Shown here in pieces: positions 3,794 to 54,933 of a stretch of DNA of 64,000 bases (the first letter of the stretch is position 1; the number at the start of each line of letters is the position of its first letter). This stretch comes from a virus. The position numbers were made by a program, and so were the translations under genes. Where the stretch lies: IMG/VR virus record IMGVR_UViG_3300049171_000092, positions 21,279 through 85,278 of that record. One strand, written 5' to 3'. The notes beneath the pieces were generated by a model that saw only the letters and a list, made by a program, of their open reading frames with translations, made no database searches and was not told where the DNA came from.

Positions 3794-4123
3794 CTATCGG
3801 CGCCGCCATCCTGGCTTTCCACCCATAGGGATGCTGCCCGTCGTCCAGATGCGGGAGCCCTTGCTCAGCTCCCGCCGCTCGGCGAGGAACTCCTGGTACT
3901 CCTCTCGCGCGTACTCCTGCACCTCCTCCAGCGTGGCGGCGTAACCGGCCCACACCTTGCCGGTCCCCATCACGCTCCAGATGGTGAACTCCCAGGACGG
4001 CACCTCGCCGTCGGCAACCTCCCTTTCGCTGAGCTCTTCCGGATGGATCTCGCCGATCCGGTCGTCGCCGTCGAAGAGGTCGAAGCGCTCCGGATCGTCG
4101 GTGGAGCGGATCTCCAGGGTCAT
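3794..4123 (-). CDS. hypothetical acidic 109-aa protein
   Basis: Track ORF; ATGA overlap with the recombinase stop codon. Confidence 0.55.
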   Translation of the reverse strand: MTLEIRSTDDPERFDLFDGDDRIGEIHPEELSEREVADGEVPSWEFTIWSVMGTGKVWAGYAATLEEVQEYAREEYQEFLAERRELSKGSRIWTTGSIPMGGKPGWRRR

Positions 4124-4689
4124 GCACGCTCCAGGTACCGGTAGATGGTGGTGCGGGCGACGCCGAGCTCGTTGGCGATGTCCTGCACGGTGTGCTTGCG
4201 CTTGCCGTCCTCGCCGAGCTCGTCGTACATCTCCTGCGCGAGCTTCACCTGCCGCGGCTTGAGTGCCTGCTTCCTGCCGCCGACTCGGCCGCGCGCCCGG
4301 GCGGCGGCCAGGCCGTCGTGGGTACGTTCGACCATCATCGAGTGCTCAAACTCGGCGATGGCGCCGAGGATTGTGAAGAACATGACCCCGGCCGGCGTCG
4401 AGGTGTCGATGCCCTGATCCAGGACGACGAGCGTGATGCCGTTGCCGCGGAGGCGTTCGGACAGCTCGAGCAGGTTCTTCGTGGAGCGGCCGAGCCGGTC
4501 CAGCTTGGTGATGACGAACTCGTCGCCTTCGCGCGCGGCGATGAGCGCCTTGTCGAGTTCGGGCCGGGAGGCGAGCTTTCCGGATGCCTTGTCGACGTAG
4601 ATCTGGTCGCAGTTCGCCTTGCGGAGGGCATCCTCCTGGGCTTCGGGGTTCTGGTCTCGGGTCGAGACGCGTCCGTATCCAATCCTCAC
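4120..4689 (-). CDS. small serine recombinase (resolvase/invertase family) with C-terminal HTH
   Basis: (M)RIGYGRVSTRDQ catalytic-serine motif, ..ITKLDRLGRS.., and a C-terminal IANELGVARTTIYRYL HTH. The track ORF extends to a TTG at 4707; I preferred the GTG at 4689 because it gives the canonical N-terminus. Confidence 0.85.
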   Translation of the reverse strand: MRIGYGRVSTRDQNPEAQEDALRKANCDQIYVDKASGKLASRPELDKALIAAREGDEFVITKLDRLGRSTKNLLELSERLRGNGITLVVLDQGIDTSTPAGVMFFTILGAIAEFEHSMMVERTHDGLAAARARGRVGGRKQALKPRQVKLAQEMYDELGEDGKRKHTVQDIANELGVARTTIYRYLERA

Positions 4690-4698
4690 AGACGGAGC

Positions 4699-4774
4699 GT
4701 AGCGCAAACGGGGGTTAGCGCAACATAGTTAAGGACACGAGTTTGCGTCACTTCCGGCCTGCGGTAACGCAGTT
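4699..4774. repeat. four copies of T(A/G)(A/G)CGCA(A/G) at the recombinase 5' end; candidate res/crossover or operator site
   Basis: GTAGCGCAAAC, GTTAGCGCAAC, GTTTGCGTCAC (inverted) and GGTAACGCAGTT lie within 75 bp of locally low-GC DNA. Confidence 0.4.
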
Positions 4775-8951: not shown

Positions 8952-9677
8952 TCAACCGTACAATTCGACGATTACTATGCCGTCCCCGCCTTCACCGCCG
9001 TCGACGTCGCCGCCGAAGGACAGGCCGCCGCCCGCGCCCGCGCCCCTGCCGCGCGGTCCGAGCCCGTTCCCCTCGGTGGTGCGGCCCAGTCCGCCCGTGC
9101 CCATGAACGAGTCGCCGCCGTGACCGGCCATGCCGTAATTGCCGTTGAGGCGGATCGCCGAGCCCGAAGCGCCGCCGCCCGCCCGGAAGTCGCCGCCCGT
9201 GCCCGCGTTGGGGCCGGCAATGCCCTGCGCCGTGCTCGGCGTGGCCCCGCTCGGCATGTTTGACGTGCCGCCCGCTCCGCCCGGCGCGAAGACGTGCCCG
9301 CCGAACTGGGACGAGCCGCCGTCGCCGCCGTCGGATCCGGCACCGCCGGCCGAGCCGCCTCGCCCGACGATGATCGTCTCGTTCGTGCCGAGCGCCGACA
9401 CCTGGATCAGGCCCTCGCCGTAGGCGCCGCCCGCTCCCCCAGGCCGCGCGATCGCCTCGTTCGTGTCGGCGTTCGCGCCCGCCGAACCGCCGCCCGCTCC
9501 CTGCACGCGGACCCTGACCCGCGCGAGCCACGGGTACGACGCCTTGCGGAACGTGAACGTGCCGGGGTCGGCGTACTCGAGGACCTGCCGCAGGCCCATC
9601 GTGCCCGGCTTCAGGCACAACTCCCCGTTGTCCGGGTCGACTACGAAAAAATCATCGCATACGCAAGCCCTTGCCAC
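8952..9677 (-). CDS. glycine-rich tail fibre-type protein (241 aa)
   Basis: Long GGxGG-type glycine-rich tracts; N-terminus MARACVCDD; GTG start. Confidence 0.6.
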   Translation of the reverse strand: MARACVCDDFFVVDPDNGELCLKPGTMGLRQVLEYADPGTFTFRKASYPWLARVRVRVQGAGGGSAGANADTNEAIARPGGAGGAYGEGLIQVSALGTNETIIVGRGGSAGGAGSDGGDGGSSQFGGHVFAPGGAGGTSNMPSGATPSTAQGIAGPNAGTGGDFRAGGGASGSAIRLNGNYGMAGHGGDSFMGTGGLGRTTEGNGLGPRGRGAGAGGGLSFGGDVDGGEGGDGIVIVELYG

Positions 9678-9703
9678 GGTTATCCCCAGATGTCCGAAAT
9701 GAC

Positions 9704-9724
9704 GCCCGGCCCAAAACCAGCGGC
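9704..9724 (-). promoter_or_regulatory. late-gene box copy 2
   Basis: GCCGCTGGTTTTGGGCCGGGC, ending 26 nt before the GTG at 9677. Confidence 0.6.
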
Positions 9725-9734
9725 TACGCAGAGG

Positions 9735-10259
9735 TTAGACCGCCGGGGCGCCGCTCGCCGTCATGTGCACCGGCACCCCGGCGCCGGACGGGACCAGCGG
9801 CAGCAGGCCCAGGCCGAGCAGCGCCTGAGTGCGCCACACCCGCACGACGGCCTGCGTCGTGGTGACCTGCTCCAGCGACACCGTCACCGTGCGGTCGTCG
9901 GCCGGCGTCGTGTCGACGGCGAGTGCTGTGATGACGGGCGGCGCGGTGAACGCCTTGGGGAACACCCACGTTGCGCGGCTGTCGGCGGCCGTAGTGACGA
10001 CCGCCGCGGCAGGCGGTGCGCCAGGCGGGCCGGGAGGGCCCGACTCGCCGGGCGCACCGGGCGCACCGGGCGCACCTGGCGATCCGGGCTCGCCGGGCGG
10101 CCCCGGGCGGCCGGGCTCGCCCTGCGGACCGCGCTCTCCTTGCTCGCCGCGCGGGCCGGGCCTGCGCGAGCCTGCACGCGCCGCCCGGCCGACCTCGCGC
10201 ATCACGCCACCCATCGGGTCACCCGGCAGCCGCCGGGCCGCTGATCCTCGTACCGCCAT
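9735..10259 (-). CDS. collagen-like repeat tail fibre protein (174 aa)
   Basis: About 16 uninterrupted G-X-Y triplets ([31 protein letters not shown]..) followed by a globular C-terminal domain. Confidence 0.75.
10014..10160 (-). repeat. G-X-Y collagen triplet repeat region within the CDS
   Basis: Residues about 34-82 of the 174-aa protein. Confidence 0.75.
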
Positions 10260-10263
10260 GCCG

Positions 10264-11289
10264 TCAGTCCTCCACGTCGCTCGTGACCGGCGCCAGTTGT
10301 ACCTTCACGCTCTCGCCGTCGCCGTCTTCTTCCACCTTCAGTCCCGCGATCTTGAGCCGCTGTGTCAGCGGCCGGCACGTCACTTGCGTGGCCACGTCGA
10401 CGCACCAGCCCGGCACGAGCGTCGCCACGTCGACCGCGGCTTCGGGCGACAAGGTCACCTCGTCCGACGACAGGAACACCGGCACCGGGTAGTTCGCCGC
10501 CCGGCGCGAGCGGGCCGCCGCCAGCGCCGACGCGTCCGTCTTGACCGACGTCTGCTCGACGCTGACCTCGAGCAGCCCGTAATAGCCATCAGCGCCGCCC
10601 GAGACGCCCTTCACGCCGCTGGCCTGGTCGCCGTGCACGATGACCCGCGTCGCGAGCTGCGAACCGTCCTCCGCCACGATTAGACCCTCAGGAAGATCCG
10701 CGTCGGTCAGCGTGCCCACCGACGCCGACCAGTCCTCGGGCATGAGCACGATCGTGTTGCCGACGGCCGTGTAGTCCAGCCCGGTGTCCGCGAGGTCGCG
10801 CAAGTGGTCGCCGGTCTGCCCGTCATCGCGCGTATAGGCGCGTCCGCCCTCGACGCCGGTCGGGCCGAGGATCCGCACCTCGTGCCCGGGGTCGTCGGGG
10901 GCGAAGCCGTCCTCGATGAGCCATGCCCCGATGTCCGCGAGGTCGGCGCCGGCGAACGTGACCGACTCGTGCGGCACGCGCCGGTCGAGCCAGACGAGAA
11001 TGTCGCTCGCCCACAGCTCGACCTTCCCCAAGGACCACTCGGCCTGGATGATGGGCCCCTCCCACACCGTCACCCCGTCGCGGGCAATGACGAGCTTGTG
11101 CCGCCAGGTGCGCACCCGGCCGAGCTGGGCGCAGCAGTCCCCGTCGGGGTTGATGATGACGTGAGCCGTCGACACGTCATCGAGGACGCGGGACCACTCC
11201 ACGGAAACGAGGACGTCGGCGTGGGAGACGACCGCGCCGTCCCGGTCGACGATCAGGGCCGAGTGAACCCCGCAGCCGGCTGACGACAT
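10264..11289 (-). CDS. minor tail protein (341 aa)
   Basis: Position after the tape measure gene and first minor tail gene. The ATG at 11289 ([10 protein letters not shown]..) lies 23 nt after a late-gene box. The track start at 11325 would translate the box. Confidence 0.6.
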
Positions 11290-11312
11290 GGGCACCCCTG
11301 TGTGAGGAGGTA

Positions 11313-11333
11313 GCCCGGCCCACAACCAGCGGC
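11313..11333 (-). promoter_or_regulatory. late-gene box copy 3
   Basis: GCCGCTGGTTGTGGGCCGGGC, preceded by CCTAACC. Confidence 0.6.
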
Positions 11334-11369
11334 ACCATCAGGTTAGGCGGGATGGATCCCCTGGGGTGG

Positions 11370-21234: not shown

Positions 21235-22092
21235 TTACAGGACGAAGATGAAGCAGCGCTGGGCTGTCTGGATGCGGTCGAAGGTGGCGCCGCCGCTGCC
21301 GCGGCCCATGCGCACGGAGAACGGCAGAGAGAGGGTTCCGCCGGGCGGAATGGTGCGGTTGAAGACCTTGCAGCCCTGGGCGTGGACCTTGTTCATGGTC
21401 GTCGTGCCGGTGTTCTCGAAGTAGTACATGTCGTCGTCGCCGAGCGCGGCCATGGCGCCACCGCCCGGCGGGATGTCGAAGTCGACGTCGAGTTCCATCT
21501 CGTAGACCACGAAGGCGGGCCGGCAGGGGTCGGGGTTGGTGATGGTGAAGTCGCGGACTTCGATCTCTGCCTCGGCGGTGGTCGGTACGGGGGTCGCCGG
21601 GTAGGTGTCGTCGATGACTTGCTGCTGGAAGTCTGTTACCGGGCGGGGTTCGCTGCGGAGTTGTCCGGTGCTGTCGCAGTAGACGTTTCCGGCGTAGGTG
21701 TCGGGGGTGCAGCCGGTGTAGGGCCAGGTGCCGACGGCTGCGGCGAGGGGGGCGGTGGTGGTGCCGTCGCCGGTGAGGCCGCATGCGGTGTCGAGTTCGG
21801 CGTAGAGCCCTTCGGGTCCGGCTTGGATGAGGTTGGTGCCGCCGCCGGGCGGGGTGGCGTCGAGGCGGACGGTGGAGCTGACGACGACCGGATCGGCGGT
21901 CGTTCCGGTGCCGGTGATGGTGGTGTCGACGGTGGGGGTGTCGCCGGCCTGGATGACGGTCGGGGTACCGCTGCCGCCGCCGGGTGCGGAGATGACGTAG
22001 GGGTTGGTGGTCGAGCCGCCGCCGTCGATCTCGACGCCGGGGCCGGCGACGAGCGTGCAGGTGCAACGCTTCGCGCCGCAGCAGTCGGCCAT
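21235..22092 (-). CDS. fibre-like protein (285 aa), paralog of 8015..8857
   Basis: MADCCGAKRCTCTLVAGPGVEIDGGGSTTNPYVISA.. and ..GGATFDRIQTA... The ATG at 22092 lies 28 nt after a box; the track start at 22131 would translate the box. Confidence 0.65.
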   Translation of the reverse strand: MADCCGAKRCTCTLVAGPGVEIDGGGSTTNPYVISAPGGGSGTPTVIQAGDTPTVDTTITGTGTTADPVVVSSTVRLDATPPGGGTNLIQAGPEGLYAELDTACGLTGDGTTTAPLAAAVGTWPYTGCTPDTYAGNVYCDSTGQLRSEPRPVTDFQQQVIDDTYPATPVPTTAEAEIEVRDFTITNPDPCRPAFVVYEMELDVDFDIPPGGGAMAALGDDDMYYFENTGTTTMNKVHAQGCKVFNRTIPPGGTLSLPFSVRMGRGSGGATFDRIQTAQRCFIFVL

Positions 22093-22224: not shown

Positions 22225-25200
22225 TCAGCCGTTCGCCGACGACGGCGGCAGGAAGCAGGGGGCGACGCGCCAGCCGTCCGGCGGGGCGTCCTGGCGCTGC
22301 CCGTCCTCGTCGAGGTAGTAGATCGAGTCGTCGCAGCACACCATCCGCGTCCACGACCGCGTCTCCGGGATCACCTGGTAGAAGACCTTCAGGTGCACCA
22401 TGAGGCCGGCGCCGCCGCCCACGGTCTCCTCGACGTCGAGGTAGAGCGCGTTACGGCCGGCCTTGGCGCCGGGGATGGCGTCCGGCCCGAAGGTGTAAGT
22501 CGTGCCGTTGTGCGTGGCCGACGCCGGGAGGGTTTGCCAGGCGCCGTCGTTGAGCCTGAAGGCCCTTCCGGCCTGGTCCGCGTTGAAAACCGTCGCCTGC
22601 ACCCGAATGCTGCTGGGATCAGCGTTGTCCGGCAGATCGAAGAACGCCCGCGGGTACCAGTGGACGTTGAGCAACGACGGGCCCTCGTTGGGCCGTGGCG
22701 GGCTCGACTGCGCCGACCGGCCATCCGGGTGCGGGCTCACCCACCACGCCGGCCGCGCCGTGTCGGAGTCCCGCACCGTCCAGTCAGCGGAGAACTGGAA
22801 CTGGTACATGTCGTACCAGACGGGGCTCGCGGCGTTGAGGTCCGTGGTCCACTTCCACACCGGGTCGACAGTGTTGTCGTTGCGATGCGCTTCGTTGGAG
22901 ATGAACTCGCGGGTCTGCGTCGGGATCTGCTGGATGCACACCTGCACGGGCTGGCAGCAGTTGTCGCCGCACGTGAGCGTCGCCCGAGCAGGGATCGCCG
23001 AGCCGGTGACCGCGTCGACGACCTTGATGCGGCCCTGGCAGTCGGCGAGCTTGACGGCCGGCCACGGCACGGTGTCGACGACGACGCCGCAGAACCGCTC
23101 GAAGTGCGGCGCGGGCGGGTCGCCGAAACCGGTGGTCGTCAGCGTCAGGCGCACCGGCTTGGAGAACTCGATCCGGTACCGGTCGCCGTTGTCGACGTTG
23201 AGCTTCGTCGGGTCGTCGTTGCGCGCGACGCCGTTACCGGCGAGCGCCCGCAGCGTCACCACCACGCCGTTGAACGTCGCCGTGCCGACGTAGCCGGCGG
23301 GCGACTGCGTCGGGTGGATCGGGATGGCCGGGTTGAACGCGGCCCAGTTGATGTCTCCGCCGAGGTCGCCGCTGGTGAACCCGAACGCCGAGATGGCGCC
23401 CGTGCTCGACTCGTAGGTGCCTTCCCAGGCGGTGACCCTGTCGCCGTAGCCGTAGCGGGGGTTCGTCGCCGTAGCGAGCATGCAGTCCGGGTAGGAGGCG
23501 CTGTTCAGGTCGAACCCGACCGCACCGTCTGGCATGGAGTAGGTGCACTCTTCCACTACCGACAGGTCGCACGGCGGCTCCTGCTGGCACTGGCCGACGT
23601 CGCCGACCGGCACGTATGGGGTGACGCCGTCCATCAGCGTGTCCGTGACGCTGGTGACCTGCCCGTCGCAGTCCCGGCAGATCCGGCGCAGGAACTGCCC
23701 GCCCGGAGCCACGCTGAAAGCGCCGACGTAGTACGTGAAGAACGTCGTGCACGCCGCGATCCTGCTGCCCTGGCCGGGCTGGGTCGTGAGGCTCGTGACC
23801 GGGCCCGGGGTGCGGAACCGGGCCATGTGCTCGGGCTGCGGGTCCGTCACGTAAGTGCAGCTGTCCGTGGTGCCGTCCCAGGTGCGGGTGAGCACACCCG
23901 TCGCCGGGTCGTAGGTGTAGTTCTCCGGCAGGCTCAGGACCTCCAGCCCGACGGGGAGCTGCGCCTGGTTGCTCGGCGGGTTCGTCGGGCTGCCGATCAG
24001 ATAGACGGAGAACTCCACGACGGACGGCAGCGAGAACGTCCACCGTGTCGGCGCATCAGCCAGGTTGGGGAACGAGTGCAGCCCCCAGAACGCGATGCCG
24101 TCGCTGTTGGCGATGCGCGCGGGCATCGCCGTTCCCGTGCTGAGCGGGCCGGGGTTGCGTGCAGTGTAGGCGACACCGTTCGCCAGGGTGCCTTGCGCGG
24201 CGGTGCCCGTGATGGTGGCAGGGCTGCCCGAGTCGCACAGGATCAGCGTCTCGCAGTCCGCGCAGGGCGAGGAGGTGGAGGGCGGCTCGGGGCAGGTGCC
24301 CGCCTCGCCCTGCACCTCGTACAGGGTGACGCCGTCGAGGGTGGTGTCCGCCGTCGTCACGCCGCCGGCGTCCCGGCACAGAGTGCGTAGGAACGGGACC
24401 GCGACGTCGGCCGCCACGGTGATCTGCCCGTACTGGCTGGTCTGCCCGGCCGTCTGCGCGCCGGTGAGAACGGGCGCGAACATGGTCTGCGCGGTCAGGG
24501 CGTCGGTCTTGAAGACGGACTCCCCGACCTGCGTGGCGGAAGCGGTCGGGGAGATCGTCCGCGTGGCCGCGTTCCAGGTGTGCTGCACGGTGTTGATGCT
24601 GTCGAGGTACCAGCCCGCGGGGATCCGCAGCGGCGTGGCGGTGGGCCCGGAGAACCTGACGGTGTAGCGGATGGACACCGGCCGGTCGAAGTCGAACCGC
24701 TCGGGCGCGTTGTCGGCGGCGAGGTACCAGCCGTCTCCGGAGGCCATGTCCAGGCCGCGCTTCATCCAGCGCACGCCGTTGGCGGCGAGGGTTTGCCACT
24801 GCTCGTCCGGTGTGCCGAACGACGGGAGGACGGCCGGCACCTGGTGCTGGACGTCGCAGAGCTGGACGATCTCGCAGTCCGTACCGGGCGGGGTTTCGCA
24901 GGCGCCCGTGGTGCCGAGCACCTGGTAGGCGGTGGTCCCGTCGAGGGTGGTGTCCGTGACGGTCGTCTCGCCGGTGGCACAGTCGCGGCACAGGGTCCGC
25001 AGGAACGGCACCGGGCCGGGGTTGAGGACGAACCCGCCGACACGGGTGGCACCGACCTGGCCGCAGATCGGCACTGCCTGCGGGGTGGTGATGACCATCG
25101 ACGAGACCGGTGCCGCGGTGAGGAACGTCGCGGACGTGGCGACCGCCGGCGTGCGCAGCGACGGGCAGTCGTCGCTGGTGCTGCTCAGGGTTCGGGTGGC

Positions 25201-25989
25201 CGCGTCGTAGCTGTACCCCTCCGGCAGGTGCAGCGGGATGACGTCGGTCGAGAACGTCACCGATCCGGGCCCGACCTGCACCACACTGAACTGGACGGTG
25301 GAGGGCTGCCCGAATTCCCACGTCTGCGGTCCGGCGCTGTCGCGCGGGTAGGTCTGGATGCCGTACCAGTAGCCGGTTCCGTCGGCCGAGGCGACGTTGG
25401 CCTCCAGCTCCATCGGGCCGTTGTTACCGTCCCCGGTCACGGACCAGGAGACCCCGCTGGATGCGGTCCCCGATCCCGCGTTCTCCGCCGGGGCGATGAC
25501 CCCCTGGGGGCCGGTAGTGGCGGACAGGACGTCGCAGAGTTGCAACGTCTCGCAGCCGGCGCACTGCGGCGGGGTGCAGACGCCGACGGTGCCCGTGACG
25601 GTGTACGGGGTGCCGTCGAGGGTGAGGTCGGTGTGCCCGTCCGGCTCGCCGGTCGCGCAGTCGTAGGAGTAGCGGCGCAGAAACCGGACGGGCTCGCCGC
25701 CACCGGCCGGGGCGTCGCACAGCAGCTCCGTGTGGCTGTCGCAGCCGCCCTCGGTGGGGCACTGCGTCAGCTCACCCTGCACCGTGTACGCCTCGCCCGT
25801 GACGGGGTCGACGGTGCGCGTCGCGACGCGCTGGCCCGTGGAGGCGTCGTAGACCGGCTCGACGGCCACCAGGGCGGCGACGGTGCCGTCTGGCAGCACG
25901 TCGCACATGACGAGCGTTTCGACGTCGAGCCGCTGCGAGGCGGCGGGGTTGTTGAAAACGACGGGCTGGCCGCAGCCGCATCCGCTCAC
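22225..25989 (-). CDS. giant Cys-rich modular repeat protein (1254 aa), unknown family
   Basis: GTG start with a GTGA overlap on the upstream stop. Five FLR..C.D..TG..TD.LDG.PY..G..G.C modules are separated by three paralogous domains of about 170 aa, plus a C-terminal domain of about 350 aa. The first 136 codons of the track ORF overlap the upstream gene and were rejected. Confidence 0.75.
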   Translation of the reverse strand: MSGCGCGQPVVFNNPAASQRLDVETLVMCDVLPDGTVAALVAVEPVYDASTGQRVATRTVDPVTGEAYTVQGELTQCPTEGGCDSHTELLCDAPAGGGEPVRFLRRYSYDCATGEPDGHTDLTLDGTPYTVTGTVGVCTPPQCAGCETLQLCDVLSATTGPQGVIAPAENAGSGTASSGVSWSVTGDGNNGPMELEANVASADGTGYWYGIQTYPRDSAGPQTWEFGQPSTVQFSVVQVGPGSVTFSTDVIPLHLPEGYSYDAATRTLSSTSDDCPSLRTPAVATSATFLTAAPVSSMVITTPQAVPICGQVGATRVGGFVLNPGPVPFLRTLCRDCATGETTVTDTTLDGTTAYQVLGTTGACETPPGTDCEIVQLCDVQHQVPAVLPSFGTPDEQWQTLAANGVRWMKRGLDMASGDGWYLAADNAPERFDFDRPVSIRYTVRFSGPTATPLRIPAGWYLDSINTVQHTWNAATRTISPTASATQVGESVFKTDALTAQTMFAPVLTGAQTAGQTSQYGQITVAADVAVPFLRTLCRDAGGVTTADTTLDGVTLYEVQGEAGTCPEPPSTSSPCADCETLILCDSGSPATITGTAAQGTLANGVAYTARNPGPLSTGTAMPARIANSDGIAFWGLHSFPNLADAPTRWTFSLPSVVEFSVYLIGSPTNPPSNQAQLPVGLEVLSLPENYTYDPATGVLTRTWDGTTDSCTYVTDPQPEHMARFRTPGPVTSLTTQPGQGSRIAACTTFFTYYVGAFSVAPGGQFLRRICRDCDGQVTSVTDTLMDGVTPYVPVGDVGQCQQEPPCDLSVVEECTYSMPDGAVGFDLNSASYPDCMLATATNPRYGYGDRVTAWEGTYESSTGAISAFGFTSGDLGGDINWAAFNPAIPIHPTQSPAGYVGTATFNGVVVTLRALAGNGVARNDDPTKLNVDNGDRYRIEFSKPVRLTLTTTGFGDPPAPHFERFCGVVVDTVPWPAVKLADCQGRIKVVDAVTGSAIPARATLTCGDNCCQPVQVCIQQIPTQTREFISNEAHRNDNTVDPVWKWTTDLNAASPVWYDMYQFQFSADWTVRDSDTARPAWWVSPHPDGRSAQSSPPRPNEGPSLLNVHWYPRAFFDLPDNADPSSIRVQATVFNADQAGRAFRLNDGAWQTLPASATHNGTTYTFGPDAIPGAKAGRNALYLDVEETVGGGAGLMVHLKVFYQVIPETRSWTRMVCCDDSIYYLDEDGQRQDAPPDGWRVAPCFLPPSSANG

Positions 25990-28535
25990 GTCGTGACTCC
26001 TGTCGTGAAGTTGATCGTTACCGTTCCGGTCTGGGCTGCGATCCGCAGCGGACCGACGAGCCTGGCGTCGATGTCTTTGCTGATCGCCCACCGGGCTGTC
26101 TCGCCGTCGTGCAGGGTCGAGGTGCCGTCGGCGGTGGTCACCTGGCCCGTGCCGGTGCGCGCGGTCGCCTCGACGGTGCGCAGCAGCGGCCAGGCGTCGG
26201 CGTCCCACGTCTCGCCGGGGTCGAGCTGCACGCGCCGCGCCTGCACCACGACGGCGGGTTCGGCGTCGCCGGTGTTCGTGTCGGCGTCGCACGGGATCGG
26301 TGCGATCGGCGTGTAGGGGGCGGAGAGGTCGGGCGTGTACGTGCCGAGCGGTGTGAGCGTGCCGGAGGTGTCGGCGAGGAGCAGCTCGGCGTAGCACGTA
26401 TCGGCGGTGCCGTCGCCGTCGGTGTCGTCGCAGCGTTCGGCGCGGATGATGCTCGAGCCGGCCGGCGTGCTGCTCGCCGGACAGAGGCCGACGGTGCCGG
26501 CGGGCGTGTACGGGGTGACGCCGTCGAGAGCGAGATCCGTGACGTCGAGGACGGCGCCGGTGCAGGTGAACGCGACGCGGCGTAGGAACGGCGTCACCGT
26601 GCCGTCTATGGCCGTGTCGCAGAGCGTCATGACGGCCGTGTCGCAGGGCTCGGCCGGTGGTGCGTCACCGTCGGCGTCGCAGTCGACGGGCGAGACTGGC
26701 GCGTAGGCCGCGGACAGGTCGGGCAGGTAGTCGCCGAGTGGGCTGATCAAGCCGTCGCAGTCGACGGCGAGGAGCGCGACGTAGTCCGTATCGGCGACGC
26801 CGTCGCCGTCGGTGTCGTCGCAGCGGCAGACGCGGAGCACGTTCGTCGTCGTGCACGGCTGGGGCGGGACGGGTGGGGATCCGGTGCCGCTGCCGGGTAC
26901 GCACTGCCGGACGTCGCCGCCGACGGTGTACGGGGCGCCGTCGAGCGTCGTGTCCGTGATCTCGGTGACCTGGCCGGTCTCGCAGTCGGTGACGATCGTC
27001 CGTAGGAACTGGACGGCGCAGCCGTCGAGGGTGGCGCCGATGTCGACTTGATCGACGGTCCATGCCTTCGGCCCGAGGTGGTGCGTCTCGAGGATGAGGA
27101 TGACGTACAGGTCGCCGGAGGTGAGATCGGCGGCCGTGATCGGGGCGATCGCGTTCAGTGTCTGCTGGTAGCCGACGGGCGGATTCGAGAGGACGCCTTC
27201 GCCGAGGAGTCCGGTCGTGCCCCGGTAGATGCCCATGCGGCCGACGTAGGCGATGCCGTCCGTCGGCCCGTTCAGGGTGACCCGCATGGAGACGGAGAGG
27301 CTGCCTTCGCCGCCCTCGCAGGGCTGGCCGGTGATCCGGCCGACAGCGACGCGGTAGACCTGCGAGCCGTCGCCGGCGGAGGCGTCGGCGTCTGCGGGGA
27401 ACGTGAACGGTCCGCCTGCCCACAGGTCGGCGAACGAGCCGGGCAGCGTCGCGAACGGGGTGGTGAGGCCGACGTCTTGGATCGTCGCGTCGCTGATCGT
27501 CAGCGGTATAGGAGTCGCCGTGAGCGTGGTGTCGCACAGGACAACGGCTGTCGTGTCGCGGCACGGCTGCGCGTCGCATGAGGTGATCGTGCCGGTCGGC
27601 ACGTAGGCGGCGCCGTCGAGCGTGTAGTCCGAGTGCCCGACGATCGCACCCGTTTCGTTGCGCCGGTAGTCGCGCAGGAACGGCGTCACGGTGCCGTCGG
27701 CGGCGACTTCACACAAGACCGCGAGGTCCTGCTCGGGCTGGTCTATGCCGGTGGGGCAGGTCGTGATCTCGCCCTGCGGCGTGTACGGCTGGCCGGTGGT
27801 GGCGTCGACGAGCTGAACGCCGCCGACGCTGCCGTCGGGGTTGTAGGTGTACTGCACGAGGACAAGGCCGAGGACGTCGCCGGTCGCCGGGTCCGTGTCG
27901 CAGAACGTGCCGGTGGTCGAGATGTTCCGCGGCGTACCGCAGGCGGTGACTCCGGTGGGGGGCTGCCCGGCGGAGTAGGCGCCCGTCGCAAGGTTGAGCC
28001 AGCCTTCCTGCCGGATCACGCCGTCGCAGTCGCGGGTGACGAGGACGGCGATGGGTGTGCCGTCGGCGAGGCACAGGCCGAGCGTCGCCAGGGGTGCGCG
28101 CTGCTCGAGGCAGTCGGAGCCGCCGTCGCAGGATCGTACTTGGCCGATGACGACGTGCGGGGTCTCGCCGTCGATCTCGACGTCGACGTAGGCGGCGGTG
28201 CCGTTGGAGAGGAAGGTGAACTTCCGCAGGAACGGGCGGCCGGAGTCGTCGCAGAGCATCTCGGTGTGGCACTGCATGGTGCCGTGCTCGCAGTCGACCG
28301 GCGAGATGGGCGTGTACGGCTCCGAGGGGTCGCCCTGGTAGGTGAGGACGAGCTGGCTGGTGCCGTCCTGCTCGATGCACCAGAGTTCGCTGTAGGTGGT
28401 GTCGGGCAGGCCGTCACCGGTCGTGTCGTCGCAGCGCAGGACGCAGGTGGTGGTGACGCACGTGGGGGGGCATTCGCATTCGCCTCCGCCGCCTCCCCCG
28501 GCGCCGCAGGTGCAGCCGCTGTAGGAGATGGCCAT
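25986..28535 (-). CDS. giant Cys-rich modular repeat protein (849 aa), unknown family
   Basis: N-terminus MAISYSGCTCGAGGGGGGECECPPTC. Four FLR..LDG.PY modules and three RCDDTDGDGxADTxY..PDLSxxYxP..CDAD modules. Coupled to both neighbouring genes. Confidence 0.75.
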   Translation of the reverse strand: MAISYSGCTCGAGGGGGGECECPPTCVTTTCVLRCDDTTGDGLPDTTYSELWCIEQDGTSQLVLTYQGDPSEPYTPISPVDCEHGTMQCHTEMLCDDSGRPFLRKFTFLSNGTAAYVDVEIDGETPHVVIGQVRSCDGGSDCLEQRAPLATLGLCLADGTPIAVLVTRDCDGVIRQEGWLNLATGAYSAGQPPTGVTACGTPRNISTTGTFCDTDPATGDVLGLVLVQYTYNPDGSVGGVQLVDATTGQPYTPQGEITTCPTGIDQPEQDLAVLCEVAADGTVTPFLRDYRRNETGAIVGHSDYTLDGAAYVPTGTITSCDAQPCRDTTAVVLCDTTLTATPIPLTISDATIQDVGLTTPFATLPGSFADLWAGGPFTFPADADASAGDGSQVYRVAVGRITGQPCEGGEGSLSVSMRVTLNGPTDGIAYVGRMGIYRGTTGLLGEGVLSNPPVGYQQTLNAIAPITAADLTSGDLYVILILETHHLGPKAWTVDQVDIGATLDGCAVQFLRTIVTDCETGQVTEITDTTLDGAPYTVGGDVRQCVPGSGTGSPPVPPQPCTTTNVLRVCRCDDTDGDGVADTDYVALLAVDCDGLISPLGDYLPDLSAAYAPVSPVDCDADGDAPPAEPCDTAVMTLCDTAIDGTVTPFLRRVAFTCTGAVLDVTDLALDGVTPYTPAGTVGLCPASSTPAGSSIIRAERCDDTDGDGTADTCYAELLLADTSGTLTPLGTYTPDLSAPYTPIAPIPCDADTNTGDAEPAVVVQARRVQLDPGETWDADAWPLLRTVEATARTGTGQVTTADGTSTLHDGETARWAISKDIDARLVGPLRIAAQTGTVTINFTTGVTT

Positions 28536-28939
28536 CAGCTATCCCCCTCGGGGTGGGCCTGGCGGCGGTGGGTGTTCCGGCCGCGTTCGGTCGCGAAGGT
28601 GCGCGGGCACCGATCGCAGGCGTAGGCGTCGTCGGCGTCGTCGCTGGGGGCGTCCTCCAGCGGCGCGAAGTCCGAACCCGGCCCGGTCTCGCTGAAGGCC
28701 TCGGGGGTGGCGACACCCAGGAGTTCCTGGTCAGCGTCCTCTTCGGGTGAGCGGTAGCGGTGGCCGTCGACGAGGGAGCCGATCAGCAGCTCTTCCGGCA
28801 TGTGCGTGAACAGGTCCGGGGGGACGGCGAACTCGCTGTGGGAGCAGGTTTCTACCTGCGGGGTCTGGGCGGTCGCCCACCGGGCGAACGCTGCACGCCG
28901 CTCGGGCGCGGGCCGCACTTTGATCATCGTCAGCAGCAC
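28535..28939 (-). CDS. 134-aa acidic protein with a C-terminal classical C2H2 zinc finger
   Basis: YACDRCPRTFATERGRNTHRRQAH fits C-x2-C-x12-H-x4-H; overlaps both neighbouring genes. Confidence 0.6.
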   Translation of the reverse strand: MLLTMIKVRPAPERRAAFARWATAQTPQVETCSHSEFAVPPDLFTHMPEELLIGSLVDGHRYRSPEEDADQELLGVATPEAFSETGPGSDFAPLEDAPSDDADDAYACDRCPRTFATERGRNTHRRQAHPEGDS

Positions 28940-45327: not shown

Positions 45328-45945
45328 CTAGTCGATGTCGCCGGTGCCGTGGCACACGGAGCAGCGGATGCTGGTGGTGTCGTGCAGGCGGGTTTCGATG
45401 GCGTGGCGGCCTTTGCCGCGGCAGGCGGGGCACGGGTTGATCGGCTGGGGCTGGTGGTCGGGGTCGGGCTGGTAGCCGCCGGCCTGGACGGTCCAGGCGG
45501 CCTCGAGCGCCCCGGCTTTCGCGGCGGCGACGCCGTTGCGGGCGGCCTGCTTGATCGGGCGGGTGACGGCGCGGACCGCCTTCCGCTTCTGCTTCCGTAG
45601 GGCGGGTTTGATGAGGCGCCGCCAGTAGATGCGGACCGCGGCCTTCACGTCCTCCGGCGTCACCTCCGGGTACAGCACCCCGGCCAGGACGGCACCGCCA
45701 ATGGTGACCTCAAACGTGTCCTCATCCTCCGGGCGCTGCCGGCCGGTGGACGCGGCCTTGATCTGCTTCAGACCGCCGACGGTGATGAGCGGGTCTTCCC
45801 AGCTGTGGGACTGCCAGCAGTTGCCGTGGACCGGCATCGCGTCGATGAAGCTGCCGCCGTCGAGGGTGAATGCCTCGCTGAGGCATTCAGGGCACGTGTA
45901 GGGGGCGCCGTCGATCGTCATCTGCTGGATCTTCAGGGTGAGCAT
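45328..45945 (-). CDS. 205-aa protein with a C-terminal DnaJ-type zinc finger (CPACRGKGRH..CSVCHGTGD)
   Basis: ATG at 45945 with a GGAGGAG SD; two CxxCxGxG motifs. Confidence 0.55.
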   Translation of the reverse strand: MLTLKIQQMTIDGAPYTCPECLSEAFTLDGGSFIDAMPVHGNCWQSHSWEDPLITVGGLKQIKAASTGRQRPEDEDTFEVTIGGAVLAGVLYPEVTPEDVKAAVRIYWRRLIKPALRKQKRKAVRAVTRPIKQAARNGVAAAKAGALEAAWTVQAGGYQPDPDHQPQPINPCPACRGKGRHAIETRLHDTTSIRCSVCHGTGDID

Positions 45946-45985
45946 GGACTCCTCCGGGGGTGGCGTTTTGTGGTGGTATGCCACC

Positions 45986-46130
45986 CGTGATGAGCGGCAT
46001 CGGTGCAGGTCAGGAGGCGTGATGGGGGCGTGATGCGGCGACCTGCCCCCGCGATGGGTTGCGGGGGTATCACGCCCCCATCACGGGAGGCGTCACGGGC
46101 CTGACCTGCGACGTCATGGGCGCGTCACGG
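45986..46130. repeat. array of nine CGTGAYG-type 8-bp repeats (4 direct, 5 inverted) including a 17-bp perfect inverted repeat; clt-, ori- or operator-like
   Basis: Direct copies: CGTGATGA 45986, CGTGATGG 46018, CGTGATGC 46029, CGCGATGG 46050. Inverted copies at 46068, 46078, 46091, 46112 and 46123. CGTGATGGGGGCGTGAT (46018-46034) is inverted against ATCACGCCCCCATCACG (46069-46085). Confidence 0.6.
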
Positions 46131-48266
46131 GCGCTCCCCTGTCAGAGACAAGATCGTTGCCAGGTAGTAGCCTCGGCCTCCCGACCACTGTTTGACGCGC
46201 ATGTCCACGCCCGGCGCAACCTCATTGGCTACCTCCCGGAGAGCCTTCAGGAACCGGTCGCGTGCCTGGTCGAAGTCCCCGTCCTCCTCGGGGGCCCAGT
46301 CGCTGGACGCTGCAGCGACGAGCTTGTACAACTCGGTGCTGGTCATCCGGTCCGGGTCACCGACGGAAGCGAACGCGGCACGGGCGAGGGCGATCGGCTC
46401 GGGGACCTTCGGCGCCGGGGCGCCAATGCGCCCCTTGCCGCCCTCACCGCCGGCCGCCGACGACACACCGGTCTCGGCGACGAGCTGCTCCTCGATCAGG
46501 TCCCGCCACTGTCCCGGCAAGCGCCCGGCGGCCTTGCGGATCTCGTAGGCCTCGGCGGCGACCCGCTTCTTGTCCTCGGGCTTCACCAGGTAGGAGCGGA
46601 CCTCGATCACGCCGGTCTCCGGGGTCGACAGCCAGGCGCGACCCGGCTGGTCGATCGGGATCTTCGACGCGTCGTAGCCCTGCCCGGTCATGCCGTCGCC
46701 GAGGATCGTGTTCGACGCGGTGCCGGACTCGGTCTTCATCGCCGCCCGGGCGACGTGGTTCTGCCGGAGCCGGCCGCGGATGACGTCGACCTCGGGCACC
46801 TGGGTGAGGCTGATGAGGGTGACACCGAGCGCGGCACCGACGGCGGCAATCTGTGACAGGTTCTCGGTGATCTCGTCCGCGTGGGGGCTGGTTCCCTTCG
46901 GGGTGTAGGTGGCGAGTTCGTCGACGATGAAGACCTCACGGCCGCCGAGGAGGCGCATGCACTCCTCGTAGTTGTCGTCGTCAATCTTTTCGTAGCCGTA
47001 CTCGTCGAGGAGGTCGGAGCGCCGGTCGATCTCCTCCTTGATCAGGCGGGTGATGACGGCGAGACGCTCCGGGCTGCGCTTCACGAACGTGGCCATGATC
47101 GGCGCGTAGGGGTTGTGCTCGGCGGTGCCCTTGCCGTCGAAGACGCGGACGTTCACCCACGGGTCCTTGGCAATGCCGAGCAGGATGTTCGCCAGCAGCA
47201 TGCCTTTACCGCGGCGGGTGGCGCCGCCGACGATGATGCTGCTGTCGCGGATCCACAGAGTGATCGGCTCACCGTGCTTACCGAACGCGACAGTGACGCC
47301 GTCGCGGAAGGTGTTCACGGGCCCGTCGTGGTCGATCAGCGGGGACCGGCGGACGATAGCGAACGGGTCGCTGCTGGACACCCACACCTTCAGCCGGGAT
47401 TCGCTGCTGCCGGGGCTGCGGTCGACGTCGAGGTCGATCCAGTCGCGGTGCACGGCGAGCGCGGACGCGATCTTCTGCTGCTGTTCCTTGCCGAGGGCGG
47501 CGGAGGCGGGGATGCCGGAGGGCAGGTCGACGGCGTAGGCGATGCCGGGGCCGTCGCTGTGGGGGATGCCGACGCCGCGGATCTCGGCCGCCCGCCGCTC
47601 GGGGACGACGCCGGCTTCGACGAGGACGCGCCGCATGGTGTCCTCGCCCAGGTGGCTGGTCCGGGTTGGCGCCTGCGCCGGGGCGGCGACGGGCTCTTCG
47701 GGCCGGCCGAACCAGGCGCCGGTGAGGATGACGGCGATGGCCATGAGGATCTGCACCCACAGCCCGCCAGCCACGGCGGCGATCGTGCCGCCGCCGACGA
47801 GGACCAGGCCGCTGATGCCGGTGCGAATCCAGTGCCGCGTCTTGTGGGCCTTGAACTCGGCGCGGCGCACGTTCAGCACGGCGCGGGCGCTCGACTCGGC
47901 GGCGGCCCGGTCCTTGCCCCGCGGCAGGTCCTTCGCTTCGCGGATCATCTGCTTGGCGGTGGCGATCTGCTGCCGGTAGTCGTCGTGCCGTGCCTCCCAC
48001 CACCTAAGGCACAGGCGCCGGTAGCCGCGCACCGACCAACCCAGGTAGTACGGCGAGTGGGTGGCGTGGAAGCGGACCGCATCGATCGCGTTGTCCCGGG
48101 CGTACACGGCCCACTGGCGGAGCTGCTCGCCGGACATCATCCATGCCGGGCGGGGGCGCTTCTCGAACTCGTAGACGGGGGCCGGCTCGGGGTCCTTGGT
48201 GAGCGTGGCGGTGATCTGCTCCCACTCCGGATCCGGGGTGCTGCTGGGGGTCGTCTCGATGCTCAC
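46125..48266 (-). CDS. FtsK/SpoIIIE-family DNA translocase (TraB-like), 713 aa
   Basis: Two N-terminal TM helices, Walker A GGATRRGKG, Walker B VFIVDE, ..LISLTQ.., and a C-terminal HTH-like ..RMTSTELYKLVAA.. Confidence 0.85.
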   Translation of the reverse strand: MSIETTPSSTPDPEWEQITATLTKDPEPAPVYEFEKRPRPAWMMSGEQLRQWAVYARDNAIDAVRFHATHSPYYLGWSVRGYRRLCLRWWEARHDDYRQQIATAKQMIREAKDLPRGKDRAAAESSARAVLNVRRAEFKAHKTRHWIRTGISGLVLVGGGTIAAVAGGLWVQILMAIAVILTGAWFGRPEEPVAAPAQAPTRTSHLGEDTMRRVLVEAGVVPERRAAEIRGVGIPHSDGPGIAYAVDLPSGIPASAALGKEQQQKIASALAVHRDWIDLDVDRSPGSSESRLKVWVSSSDPFAIVRRSPLIDHDGPVNTFRDGVTVAFGKHGEPITLWIRDSSIIVGGATRRGKGMLLANILLGIAKDPWVNVRVFDGKGTAEHNPYAPIMATFVKRSPERLAVITRLIKEEIDRRSDLLDEYGYEKIDDDNYEECMRLLGGREVFIVDELATYTPKGTSPHADEITENLSQIAAVGAALGVTLISLTQVPEVDVIRGRLRQNHVARAAMKTESGTASNTILGDGMTGQGYDASKIPIDQPGRAWLSTPETGVIEVRSYLVKPEDKKRVAAEAYEIRKAAGRLPGQWRDLIEEQLVAETGVSSAAGGEGGKGRIGAPAPKVPEPIALARAAFASVGDPDRMTSTELYKLVAAASSDWAPEEDGDFDQARDRFLKALREVANEVAPGVDMRVKQWSGGRGYYLATILSLTGERP

Positions 48267-53372: not shown

Positions 53373-54119
53373 TTATGCGTCGATCACGTAGTCCAGGATG
53401 TAGCTGCCGCCGTCCAAGCTCATCTCATTGACCTCCACGGCACGCCCGCTCTCTTCGAAAGCCGTGCGAACCACGCAGGCGACGGGCGTACCAGGACCCA
53501 GCTTCATGACGGCCAGCTCTCTCGAGTTGGGCATGCGCACGCGGACCTCCTCCTTGAAGCGAACCGGCCCATGCCCGGCCTCTTCCAAGCGCCTGTAGAT
53601 GCCCCCCTCGCCCGTGTCCTGCTCCATGATCTGCGTACCCTCGGCCAGGTCGAGAGGGATGTACGAGTCCGACATCAGCACCGGTCGACCATCCAGCACG
53701 TAGTGCCGACGGCGGCGAAGCACGGCCTGACCTCGCGGAATACCCAGCGCTTCCGCTACCCGTGCAGACGCCTCGAAGGTGTCGATCTCAAGCCCCTCCA
53801 CCTTCGGCTTAGCGTTGCGCACATCGATCGACCACATCGAAGTGCCAGCCCCCCAGACCTCACGCGACAGTCGATCATTGGCCAAACGCCGAATGGGCTT
53901 GAAGTCGCGGACTATGGCCTGCTTGCCCTGCCCTCCAACTGTGAGCCCTTGGTCTCGGAGGAGGCGCAGCGCCTTCGTGACAGTCTCACGGCCGGCCTTG
54001 AACTCCGCCATCACCTCGGACTCGCTGGGGATCGGGTCACCCGGTCGGTACTGGCCTCGCTCGATGCGAGCACGTAGCTCCTCAGCGATCTCCTTGTAGC
54101 CCATCTTGATCCCAGCCAA
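53373..54119 (-). CDS. GntR-family (HutC/UTRA-type) transcriptional repressor, Kor-like
   Basis: N-terminal wHTH ..YKEIAEELRARIERGQYRPGDPIPSESEVMAEFKAGRETVTKALRLLRDQGL.. and a C-terminal UTRA-like domain of about 160 aa; TTG start. Confidence 0.8.
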   Translation of the reverse strand: MAGIKMGYKEIAEELRARIERGQYRPGDPIPSESEVMAEFKAGRETVTKALRLLRDQGLTVGGQGKQAIVRDFKPIRRLANDRLSREVWGAGTSMWSIDVRNAKPKVEGLEIDTFEASARVAEALGIPRGQAVLRRRRHYVLDGRPVLMSDSYIPLDLAEGTQIMEQDTGEGGIYRRLEEAGHGPVRFKEEVRVRMPNSRELAVMKLGPGTPVACVVRTAFEESGRAVEVNEMSLDGGSYILDYVIDA

Positions 54120-54189: not shown

Positions 54190-54304
54190 GCCGAATGTTG
54201 TCCAGTAGTTCCACGAGTACGCAACGCCACGGCCTGCGGCTACACAAGCCTCTCCTTGCCGCCAGGCCATGCCAACGTGCCCACGCGTCAACTGTACGCA
54301 TCGC

Positions 54305-54316
54305 TTCCACGTGGAA
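54305..54316. promoter_or_regulatory. perfect 12-bp palindrome TTCCACGTGGAA upstream of the GIY-YIG-GntR gene
   Basis: Lies 24 nt before the ATG at 54340; a GTTCCACG half-site is also at about 54209. Confidence 0.4.
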
Positions 54317-54339
54317 CGCCAGCAAGGCGAAGGGACATC

Positions 54340-54933
54340 ATGCCTGACCTCATCCAGCGAACAGCTCTATACCGCTTCTTCGACGCGAAGGGGAACTTGC
54401 TCTACGTCGGGATCGCCAAGGACCCGAAGCGGCGCTGGCGCCAGCACGCCATAGACAGCTCTGACACCTGGTGGCCGGACGTCCACCGGAAGGAAGTCGA
54501 GTGGCACGAGAATCGCGCGGAGGCCGAGGAGGCGGAAAAGCGGGCGATTCGCACTGAAGGACCCTCGTACAACACCGCGCACACGGCGACCGGCATCGAG
54601 AGACGGCCGGGATGGGTGAAGCCAGCACCAGCGCCTTCAGCTCGGGCTGAAGCCGCGCGCCACTCTCAGCAACAGCGCGGAATTTCGTTCAGCATGCAGA
54701 GTCGGAGCGCCAAGATGTCGATGCCTGATCTGGTGGCGCAGACGCTCCGCGACGAGATCAGTGCGGGCCAGTACACGCCCGACGTCCGTCTCCCTAGGGT
54801 CGCCGATCTCGCCAAAAGGTTCGGGATCAGTCGACCGACTGCGTCACTCGGCCTCCAGATCCTCAAGGATGAAGGAATCCTCGAGAGCCGCCCCGGTGTC
54901 GGGACCTTCGTCATCCGCGCTCCAGCTCGGTGA
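54340..54933 (+). CDS. GIY-YIG nuclease-like domain fused to a GntR-type winged HTH (197 aa)
   Basis: N-terminus ..LYRFFDAKGNLLYVGIAKDPKRRWRQH..EAEKRAIRTEGPSYN. C-terminus ..LRDEISAGQYTPDVRLPRVADLAKRFGISRPTASLGLQILKDEGILESRPGVGTFV. Confidence 0.7.
   Translation: MPDLIQRTALYRFFDAKGNLLYVGIAKDPKRRWRQHAIDSSDTWWPDVHRKEVEWHENRAEAEEAEKRAIRTEGPSYNTAHTATGIERRPGWVKPAPAPSARAEAARHSQQQRGISFSMQSRSAKMSMPDLVAQTLRDEISAGQYTPDVRLPRVADLAKRFGISRPTASLGLQILKDEGILESRPGVGTFVIRAPAR

Follow-up and report, generated by a model that had tools for sequence, protein, structure and literature searches.

In a 64,000-nucleotide stretch of the IMG/VR virus record IMGVR_UViG_3300049171_000092 (positions 21,279 to 85,278 of that record; this whole stretch is referred to here as the window), the gap between a gene for a TraB/FtsK-like double-stranded DNA (dsDNA) translocase and the next gene is filled by an array of short phased repeats, which is probably a clt/TRS-type locus of the adjacent TraB-like pump. 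Winged-helix tails of the translocase would dock on phased 9-mers and load the motor, and the motor would move the dsDNA of the element. We favor a docking site because, among relatives, the repeat sequence and the DNA-reading tail of the pump are exchanged together as one cassette. TraB moves the DNA of Streptomyces plasmids through the septum or into a neighboring hypha, and genes move through Streptomyces mainly by TraB-type conjugation; to our knowledge, DNA recognition by TraB has been worked out on only a few plasmids. New here are the occurrence of a probable clt-type array in tailed prophages, its strict 11-bp-phased dyad with twin anchors, and the exchangeable specificity cassette. 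A preliminary description of the window had proposed a clt/TRS-like organization beside the translocase gene. This proposal is supported by comparative evidence, namely, the homology of the translocase, the co-variation of its tail with the repeat motif, and the layout of the corresponding region of the plasmid pSVH1.

The intergenic gap (45946-46124, 179 bp) lies between two minus-strand genes, and the array within it consists of eight or nine sites within 160 bp, beginning at the translocase stop codon (Table 1). All nine of the copies counted in the preliminary description, four direct and five in the opposite orientation, were found where it had placed them. The 8-bp period that it gave did not hold: the sites are instead 9-mers phased at 11 bp, the unit being best described as CCCGTGAYG, and the 11-bp spacing inside the motif pairs of the array had gone unnoticed. 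Site 3 extends the gene-proximal arm by one 11-bp turn. The perfect 17-nt inverted repeat described earlier is present and 100% complementary (CGTGATGGGGGCGTGAT at 46018-46034 and ATCACGCCCCCATCACG at 46069-46085), and so is the CCCCCGC/GCGGGGG pair that it encloses; the 17-nt repeat is perfect because two adjacent sites of this motif class (class A) and a GGGGG spacer happen to be mirrored. Outside it we found a further perfect inverted repeat of 10 nt, not noticed before (GCAGGTCAGG at 46005-46014 and CCTGACCTGC at 46100-46109). The last copy was correctly said to hold the stop codon of the FtsK-like gene, with TGA lying inside site 1. In all four class-A loci (46125-46131 of the window and the homologous loci L029, L036, and L037), the translocase ends in proline followed by stop (CCG TGA), and the stop lies inside the CCCGTGA repeat. 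The first repeat thus supplies the stop codon, and the end of the protein and the DNA site are physically fused. At its other end, the array stops about 20 bp short of the ribosome-binding site that serves the next gene, which lies on the same strand and has its ATG start at 45945, as had been described.

Table 1. Positions of the repeat array, its flanking genes, and the proposed cassette in the window
Feature	Positions	Strand	Sequence	Copy in the preliminary description	Remarks
TraB/FtsK-like dsDNA translocase gene, 713 aa	46125..48266	-			Pfam, PHROG, PDB profile, pSVH1 TraB homology
Hypervariable C-terminal domain, codons 621-713	46128..46406	-			Proposed specificity domain
Exchangeable specificity cassette	45946..46424	.			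Predicted winged-helix coding segment and whole intergenic array
Site 1	46123..46131	-	CCCGTGACG	CGTCACGG at 46123	Holds translocase TGA stop (46125-46127)
Site 2	46112..46120	-	CCCATGACG	CGTCATGG at 46112	11 bp past site 1
Gene-proximal conserved anchor	46100..46109	-	GCAGGTCAGG		Perfect inverted repeat with 46005-46014
Site 3	46091..46099	-	CCCGTGACG	CGTCACGG at 46091	Extra site
Site 4	46079..46087	-	CCCGTGATG	CCATCACGG at 46078	
Site 5	46068..46076	-	GGCGTGATA	TATCACGC at 46068	
Central spacer	46036..46067	.			CCCCCGC (46046-46052)/GCGGGGG (46061-46067) hairpin
Degenerate copy in central spacer	46050-46057	+	CGCGATGG		
Partial anchor copy in central spacer	46040-46046		GACCTGC		
Site 6	46027..46035	+	GGCGTGATG	CGTGATGC at 46029	Dyad partner of site 5
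Site 7	46016..46024	+	GGCGTGATG	CGTGATGG at 46018	Dyad partner of site 4
Gene-distal conserved anchor	46005..46014	+	CCTGACCTGC in gene orientation		Corresponds to plasmid CTGACCTGC
Site 8	45984..45992	+	CCCGTGATG	CGTGATGA at 45986	
Degenerate ninth copy	45972-45980		GGTGGTATG		Beside site 8
Ribosome-binding site of next gene	45949-45955		GGAGGAG		
Next gene, 205 aa	45328..45945	-			MLTLKIQQMTIDG..CPEC.., C-terminal CxxCxGxG zinc-finger-like motif; Pfam DnaJ_CXXCXGXG weak match

The statistics of the repeat within the window are good, neither overwhelming nor decisive alone. Of the enrichment that the preliminary description had raised, none was seen over the whole window (117 copies of CGYGAYG were found versus 148 expected), but clustering at the array is strong. 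Seven copies of CGYGAYG lie in 145 bp versus about 0.27 expected from the window-wide density, and CGTGAYG reaches 6 per 200 bp at the array versus a maximum of 2 per 200 bp, and 0.7 per kb, elsewhere. In a motif-blind scan of 1277 segments of 200 bp, with GC-only 8-mers excluded, the array tied for first place with 7 copies, a count reached by 5 segments. Without this filter, low-complexity GC-only coding repeats outscored the array, and the scan is a poor test alone. The reality of the array is settled because its layout is conserved in about 45 other loci.

These loci were fetched from among the homologues of the translocase, which number more than 200 in Streptomyces genomes and metagenomes and are 57 to 93% identical among the 120 listed. 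Many of the homologue contigs are classed as viral by IMG/VR, and others adjoin HNH, terminase, and portal genes; the loci compared are mostly chromosomal prophages. The same arrangement, which the preliminary description had suggested looking for next to homologous genes, recurs in nearly all of this set. The stop codon is followed by a motif pair at 11-bp spacing, (GGATAACC)GCAGGTC, two or three further copies, a spacer of 30 to 40 bp, two inverted copies, GACCTGCA(..TATCC), two inverted copies, and the ribosome-binding site of the next gene. A motif-blind search placed the sites, in about 30 loci, at offsets of 12, 23, 56, and 67 and of 111, 122, 155, and 166 after the stop, all congruent modulo 11 and mirror-symmetric (p + q = 191). 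The GCAGGTC...GACCTGC anchor pair is conserved whatever the motif class, and its CAGGT core is invariant in 17 canonical loci. The distance from anchor to anchor is 97 bp in the window and L029, 96 to 97 bp in the longer form, and 86 bp in canonical loci, a difference of one extra helical turn.

The motif itself varies, falling into at least ten classes: CCCGTGAYG (class A; the window, L029, L036, and L037), CCCCTGACA (L010, L012, L019, and L031), GGTCTGMCA (L021, L025, L027, and L028), GGTCGGACA (L004, L022, L023, and L026), GGTMCGACA (L003 and L030), GACCCTGCC (L005, L008, L015, and L032), CAYCGGACA (L024 and L043), CCYCGGACA (L016 and L041), GCGTGGACA (L038), and CTGGACA (L039). It is essentially confined to one cluster per element; in L026, all 8 copies in 22 kb lie inside the array. 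One locus, L041, comes from a 23-kb linear "plasmid" record (CP075612.1) that starts inside the TraB-like gene and has the same layout with CCCGGACA/CCTGGACA repeats. Instead of a plasmid, it may represent a phage or plasmid-phage whose assembly is incomplete.

The translocase has a Walker A motif (GATRRGKG, residues 348 to 355), a Walker B motif (VFIVDE, residues 445 to 450), and one long hydrophobic stretch by Kyte-Doolittle hydropathy (residues 147 to 187), with room for two helices. Its match to Pfam FtsK_SpoIIIE is weak (21.9 bits, under the 24-bit cutoff), and an NCBIfam scan returned nothing useful; it matches phrog_1358 (FtsK/SpoIIIE-like) at 1.6e-39, and a profile of its family matches FtsK in the PDB (E = 1.3e-7). 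BLASTP aligned it with pSVH1 TraB at 26% identity over residues 33 to 584, the N-terminal region included (E = 1e-22), and pSG5 TraB is about 29% identical over the motor. We regard it as a distant TraB homologue. Its C-terminal 93 residues are the only hypervariable part: column identity to the 120 homologues is 0.6 to 0.9 up to residue 620 and falls to 0.13 to 0.31 for residues 621 to 713. An AlphaFold2 model of this tail (predicted local distance difference test score, 85) has the topology a1-b1-a2-a3-b2-b3-a4, which is that of a winged helix, and the wing motif ..TGYPL of pSVH1 TraB aligns with ..xGYxL of the family. A profile of the tail found no sequence relative in the PDB and, in a search of 1.84 billion proteins, only 37 clusters, mostly the extreme C terminus of TraB-like proteins of 680 to 790 residues or short fragments.

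We take the tail to be the likely reader of the repeats because it co-varies with the motif and equally linked neighbors do not. In Mantel tests (Spearman rho versus motif distance, 2000 permutations), identity of the C-terminal domain gave a rho of -0.62, which none of the 2000 permutations reached. The motor gave -0.35 (0/2000) and, in a second analysis, -0.21 (15/2000). No significant relation to motif distance was found for the downstream protein (+0.13 and +0.10), the upstream 434-aa protein (-0.09), or g44941 (+0.10). The GntR regulator, considered as a candidate reader, was rejected as discordant with motif class: the regulators of L025 and L039 are 73% identical although the classes differ, and those of L025 and L042 are 39% identical in the same class. 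Across all motif classes, the first 620 residues of the translocase are 59 to 86% identical in most loci. The last 93 residues of the window protein match only those of class-A L029 (81%), and two further class-A tails, P0001 and P0004, likewise carry CCCGTGAYG arrays. Four motif predictions were written from tail sequence alone before the DNA was fetched, and three of them were checkable. The motifs predicted for P0091 (GGTCTG[AC]CA) and P0050 (CA[TC]CGGACA) were observed; for P0040, the predicted TGAC core was observed with different flanks.

Comparison of DNA identity along the locus shows how much is exchanged. Between the window and L032 or L005, identity is 0.8 to 0.95 as far as position -300 (counted from the stop), falls to about 0.45 over the interval from -300 to +180, and is back at 0.88 to 0.97 from the start codon of the next gene onward. 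Between the window and L029, which has the same motif class, it is 0.63 to 0.83 throughout. Because identity collapses exactly over 45946-46424, the exchanged unit is the tail and the array alone, and the edges of this cassette coincide with the boundary of the tail domain and the next start codon.

An apparent recognition code emerged when tails P0001 to P0120 were set beside their arrays (about ten classes, with kinship ignored). Motif position 7 goes with the residue that precedes Gly-Tyr in the wing (P/Q with T, L/N with G, and T with C, residue first), and the 5' triplet goes with the beginning of helix a3 (GGT with RAW(S/T)S or RGWTT and CA(T/C) with HGW(S/T)I).

The repeats of clt differ from plasmid to plasmid (PMC4447253; PMC3583192; PMC4170104). 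In pSVH1, five exact copies of GACCCGGA lie in about 100 bp right after the traB stop, direct first and then inverted; after these come CTGACCTGCGCAAAC (with CTGACCTGC), a further two inverted copies spaced by 11 bp, and the next gene. The layout after traB is similar in pSG5, pFP11, and pZL1. In position as in design, the window array is thus homologous to the repeats that follow pSVH1 traB, a region in which the TraB recognition motif clusters. In both, the repeats start at the translocase stop, and motifs of 8 to 9 bp recur at multiples of about 11 bp, direct and then inverted. The motif is unlike the published repeat, as the preliminary description had noted (CCCGTGAYG here versus GACCCGGA in pSVH1), and a full-text literature search for GACCCGGA returned unrelated primer matches only. 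In contrast to the window, pSVH1 has one anchor only and no strict dyad, an insertion between helix a3 and the wing of TraB, and unrelated downstream genes, and it is a 12.6-kb rolling-circle plasmid, not a phage. The likeness to Streptomyces plasmids suggested earlier therefore holds for the layout but not for the host element, which we judge to be a tailed prophage.

A second known locus, that of pWTY27, was compared by description. Its clt comprises 16 bp inside traA and 159 bp downstream, and TraA footprints on it (PMC3583192; PMC4447253; PMC4170104). Comparably, site 1 of the window overlaps the translocase stop, and the window array extends over about 160 bp. The clt of pWTY27 contains 7-bp direct repeats and inverted repeats, on which TraA footprints two blocks (PMC3583192); unlike those of the window, its motifs are TGACACC and CCCGCCC, and no 11-bp phased dyad is described.

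One element is constant despite the changes in repeat motif. CTGACCTGC is invariant in an alignment of plasmids and prophages, is always followed by two inverted motif copies 11 bp apart, and is kept in plasmids whose TraB is only 25 to 40% identical to the window translocase. It lies 147 nt after the traB stop in pSVH1 (L045), pSG5 (L047), and pFP11 (L048) and at +133 in pZL1 (L049), where the left copy is present too; in the window it occurs at 46005-46013 and 46101-46109. Our literature search found no paper that mentions a conserved CTGACCTGC element or links CTGACCTGC to clt.

A further parallel is FtsK, whose winged-helix gamma tail reads the oriented 8-bp KOPS and sets the place and direction of motor loading. 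The motor domains are related, as indicated by the profile match to FtsK in the PDB. However, KOPS are dispersed and skewed along the chromosome and their recognition is conserved, whereas window-type sites form one tight cluster per element and the specificity of the tail is hypervariable; the top 50 structural matches to the tail did not include the gamma domain. Streptomyces plasmid-phages of the pZL12/pSLE1 type, again compared by description, are both phage and conjugative, as the elements described here may be. The plasmid pSLE1 is pZL12-like and carries phage particle genes (PMC4487206). [quoted passage not shown] Unlike elements of this type, the loci compared here are mostly chromosomal prophages, with no ParAB genes seen near the module.

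We propose that each 9-bp site (CCCGTGAYG here) would be read by one C-terminal winged-helix domain of the translocase. With sites paired 11 bp apart and the pairs themselves separated by multiples of about 11 bp, all sites would face the same side of the helix, which could allow several domains from one ring, or from two rings, to bind together. The two halves of the array, opposed around the dyad and framed by GCAGGTC...GACCTGC, would let the motor load in one orientation or the other. This membrane-anchored motor would then pump excised or replicating phage DNA through the septum or into a neighboring hypha. Since the array lies just ahead of the ribosome-binding site that serves the next gene, its occupancy may dampen downstream expression as well. 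The comparisons establish the sites with their phasing and symmetry, the conserved layout, the exclusive co-variation and cassette exchange with the tail, and the homology to TraB and to the region after pSVH1 traB; from them we infer binding of the DNA, the loading of the motor and the direction of loading, the movement of DNA, and a role in the phage life cycle.

Several points weigh against this mechanism. The host element is a tailed prophage, for which a conjugation-type function is suggested by analogy, and the close relatives of its translocase include no isolated phage in INPHARED: a tblastn search of 50,697 phage genomes found no close relative of the translocase and only Bacillus, Geobacillus, and Listeria FtsK-like genes at less than 31% identity. 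The winged helix of the tail is predicted from a model. Foldseek matches to this model are mostly winged helices (Cdt1, FoxP3/FOXO, histone H1/H5, and ORC/Cdc6), none of them significant (E >= 0.33), and the tail profile aligns weakly with the C terminus of pSVH1 TraB (hhalign probability, 41%; E = 2.8e-4). We know of clt loci described mainly as direct repeats, and the published models known to us leave strict two-fold symmetry unexplained. In addition, the tail and the array are physically adjacent, and part of their co-variation reflects linkage. Linkage alone is argued against because the equally close downstream gene does not co-vary.

The repeats could alternatively be no more than an autoregulatory operator, with the tail or the whole protein repressing or insulating the downstream genes and playing no role in translocation. 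The co-variation of the tail fits regulation as well as it fits loading, and the position of the array, a short way ahead of a ribosome-binding site on the same strand, would suit an operator. We nevertheless consider this unlikely. Nearly all full-length members found carry the tail on a complete FtsK-type motor with a membrane anchor; the homologous region of plasmid relatives is required in cis for transfer (PMC3583192); and no sigma-70-type promoter was detected in the region by a scan that covers Streptomyces promoters poorly. An operator bound by some other protein, as the preliminary description had offered, fits worse, with no co-varying regulator. It is quite unlikely that the array acts instead as a long RNA or single-stranded DNA hairpin (a terminator without a U tract, an attenuator, or a processing site) whose arm changes are compensatory. 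Although the minus-strand RNA folds to -91.9 kcal/mol (z = -4.3, with no shuffle as good) and both arms change together between classes, mimicking covariation, arm complementarity in the 17 loci in exact register is 0.74 at the sites, 1.0 in the anchor core, and 0.36 in the spacers, the last being about the level of unrelated G+C-rich sequence. We conclude that this is an array of sites and not a continuous stem because complementarity is restricted to the sites and the anchor core. A hairpin would not need a 9-mer that recurs two or three times per arm at an 11-bp phase, and it leaves the co-variation with the protein tail unexplained. No U tract follows the stem, no terminator-like minus-strand site was found in the array, and no Rfam match overlaps it.

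Phased short repeats with dyad symmetry also resemble iterons and parC-type centromeres, and RepAM of pMEA300 binds 8-bp repeats at a putative origin (PMC2440964). That the array is a replication origin or centromere bound by another protein of the element, such as an initiator or a ParB-like protein, is nonetheless very improbable: none of the neighboring proteins co-varies, the swapped cassette holds nothing besides the translocase tail and the array, no A+T-rich stretch for unwinding is present in the region, and no ParA or ParB gene was seen adjoining the array. The iteron origin mentioned in the preliminary description thus fits worse, with no co-varying initiator. We give least credence of all to SpdA/sps-type sites or to a phage attP or pac site. 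The zinc-finger protein SpdA2 binds the 12-bp sps palindrome CGTCACGTGACG (PMC4170104), one half of which is the GTGACG of class A, and the next gene encodes a zinc-finger-like protein. However, the palindrome CGTCAC(T)GTGACG is absent near the array even at 2 mismatches, and its matches with up to 2 mismatches fall elsewhere in the window and are fewer than expected by chance. The sps of pSVH1 lies far from the repeats downstream of traB, and no motif of the other classes is related to sps, although the zinc-finger protein is conserved across classes. Arm-type sites of attP are also short repeats in both orientations, but the array is intact in the middle of prophages on megabase contigs (e.g., L042), not split as attP would be; for a pac site, the terminase gene is 7 kb away. 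The attP, pac, and sps readings were rejected on these grounds, namely, the intact array in integrated prophages, the distance to the terminase gene, and the absence of the palindrome.

A broader idea, which we put forward tentatively and consider doubtful, is that a widespread family of tailed Streptomyces prophages uses its own TraB-clt module to move phage genomes as naked dsDNA without virions. If this is true, passage of naked DNA between hyphal compartments or into neighboring mycelium would be a bacterial counterpart of the viral movement protein, and the element would be a "conjugative prophage." Exchange of the winged-helix and array cassette among phages would keep co-resident elements from hijacking each other's pump. 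The class-independent CTGACCTGC, common to pSVH1, pSG5, pFP11, and pZL1, would be an unrecognized universal clt core and could serve as a loading point or a host-factor site. At least ten natural tail/motif pairs on a conserved scaffold make a TraB winged-helix recognition code directly testable, and the 11-bp-phased two-fold symmetry with conserved anchors is relevant to the loading and orientation of a hexameric pump. Complete tailed prophages carrying the module would blur the line between transduction and conjugation in filamentous bacteria, and a prophage TraB-clt module could explain the spread of lysogeny through the mycelium.

Judging from its gene content, the window is a tailed (pro)phage because terminase, head, portal, tail, and lysin genes are present. 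Pfam matches identify a large terminase (Terminase_3, 2.3e-14), a Mu-F-like head protein (Phage_Mu_F, 2.5e-11), and an amidase lysin (Amidase_2, 5e-14), and PHROG matches identify a portal (1e-169), a major head protein (7e-150), a head-tail adaptor (5.5e-90), a tape measure protein (1e-106), and a minor tail protein (1.1e-80). The window is 69.5% G+C, and nearly all of its genes from 1 kb to 57.5 kb lie on the minus strand. No near-identical DNA was found in phage records, and plasmid records contained no match above 71% identity. No tyrosine integrase was seen among the window open reading frames scanned, and the window contains no tRNA gene. A small serine recombinase gene (4120-4728, minus strand; Resolvase and HTH_7, 6e-43) is located close to the prophage's lysis end.

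The FtsK-like gene is one of the early-region genes, with a GntR/UTRA regulator and an HTH_17 protein encoded upstream of it. The GntR and UTRA regulator is of a family that we take to be the same as that of the plasmid TraR/KorA repressors of traB. Two GntR-family regulators are encoded upstream of the module, at 53373-54119 (minus strand) and 54256-54933 (plus strand), and the other, besides the GntR and UTRA protein, is an unusual fusion of a GIY-YIG nuclease domain to a GntR domain; pSVH1 also carries a GntR-type gene. The protein encoded by the next gene after the array is 60 to 85% identical in most loci that carry it, whatever the motif class, and it is not a class-specific reader because it is conserved across these classes. 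The 5' coding part of this gene contains a perfect 10-bp palindrome, TGAATGCCTC-AGC-GAGGCATTCA (45867-45889). We rejected it as a conserved element, as it follows from the ECLSEAF codons and other loci have it only imperfectly or not at all; it probably arises as a side effect of coding.

Elsewhere in the window, two very long minus-strand open reading frames (22225-26664 and 25986-28538) overlap by about 680 nt in different frames, and both match phrog_18824 (unknown function); they could be paralogues, a frameshifted single gene, or a case of programmed frameshifting. The densest short repeats of the window, 8-mers of the GCCGGGCG type at up to 12 per 200 bp, occur at about 9950-10250, between the called genes at 8952-9734 and 10264-11337, and are probably a low-complexity Gly/Pro/Ala-rich coding stretch of a tail protein.

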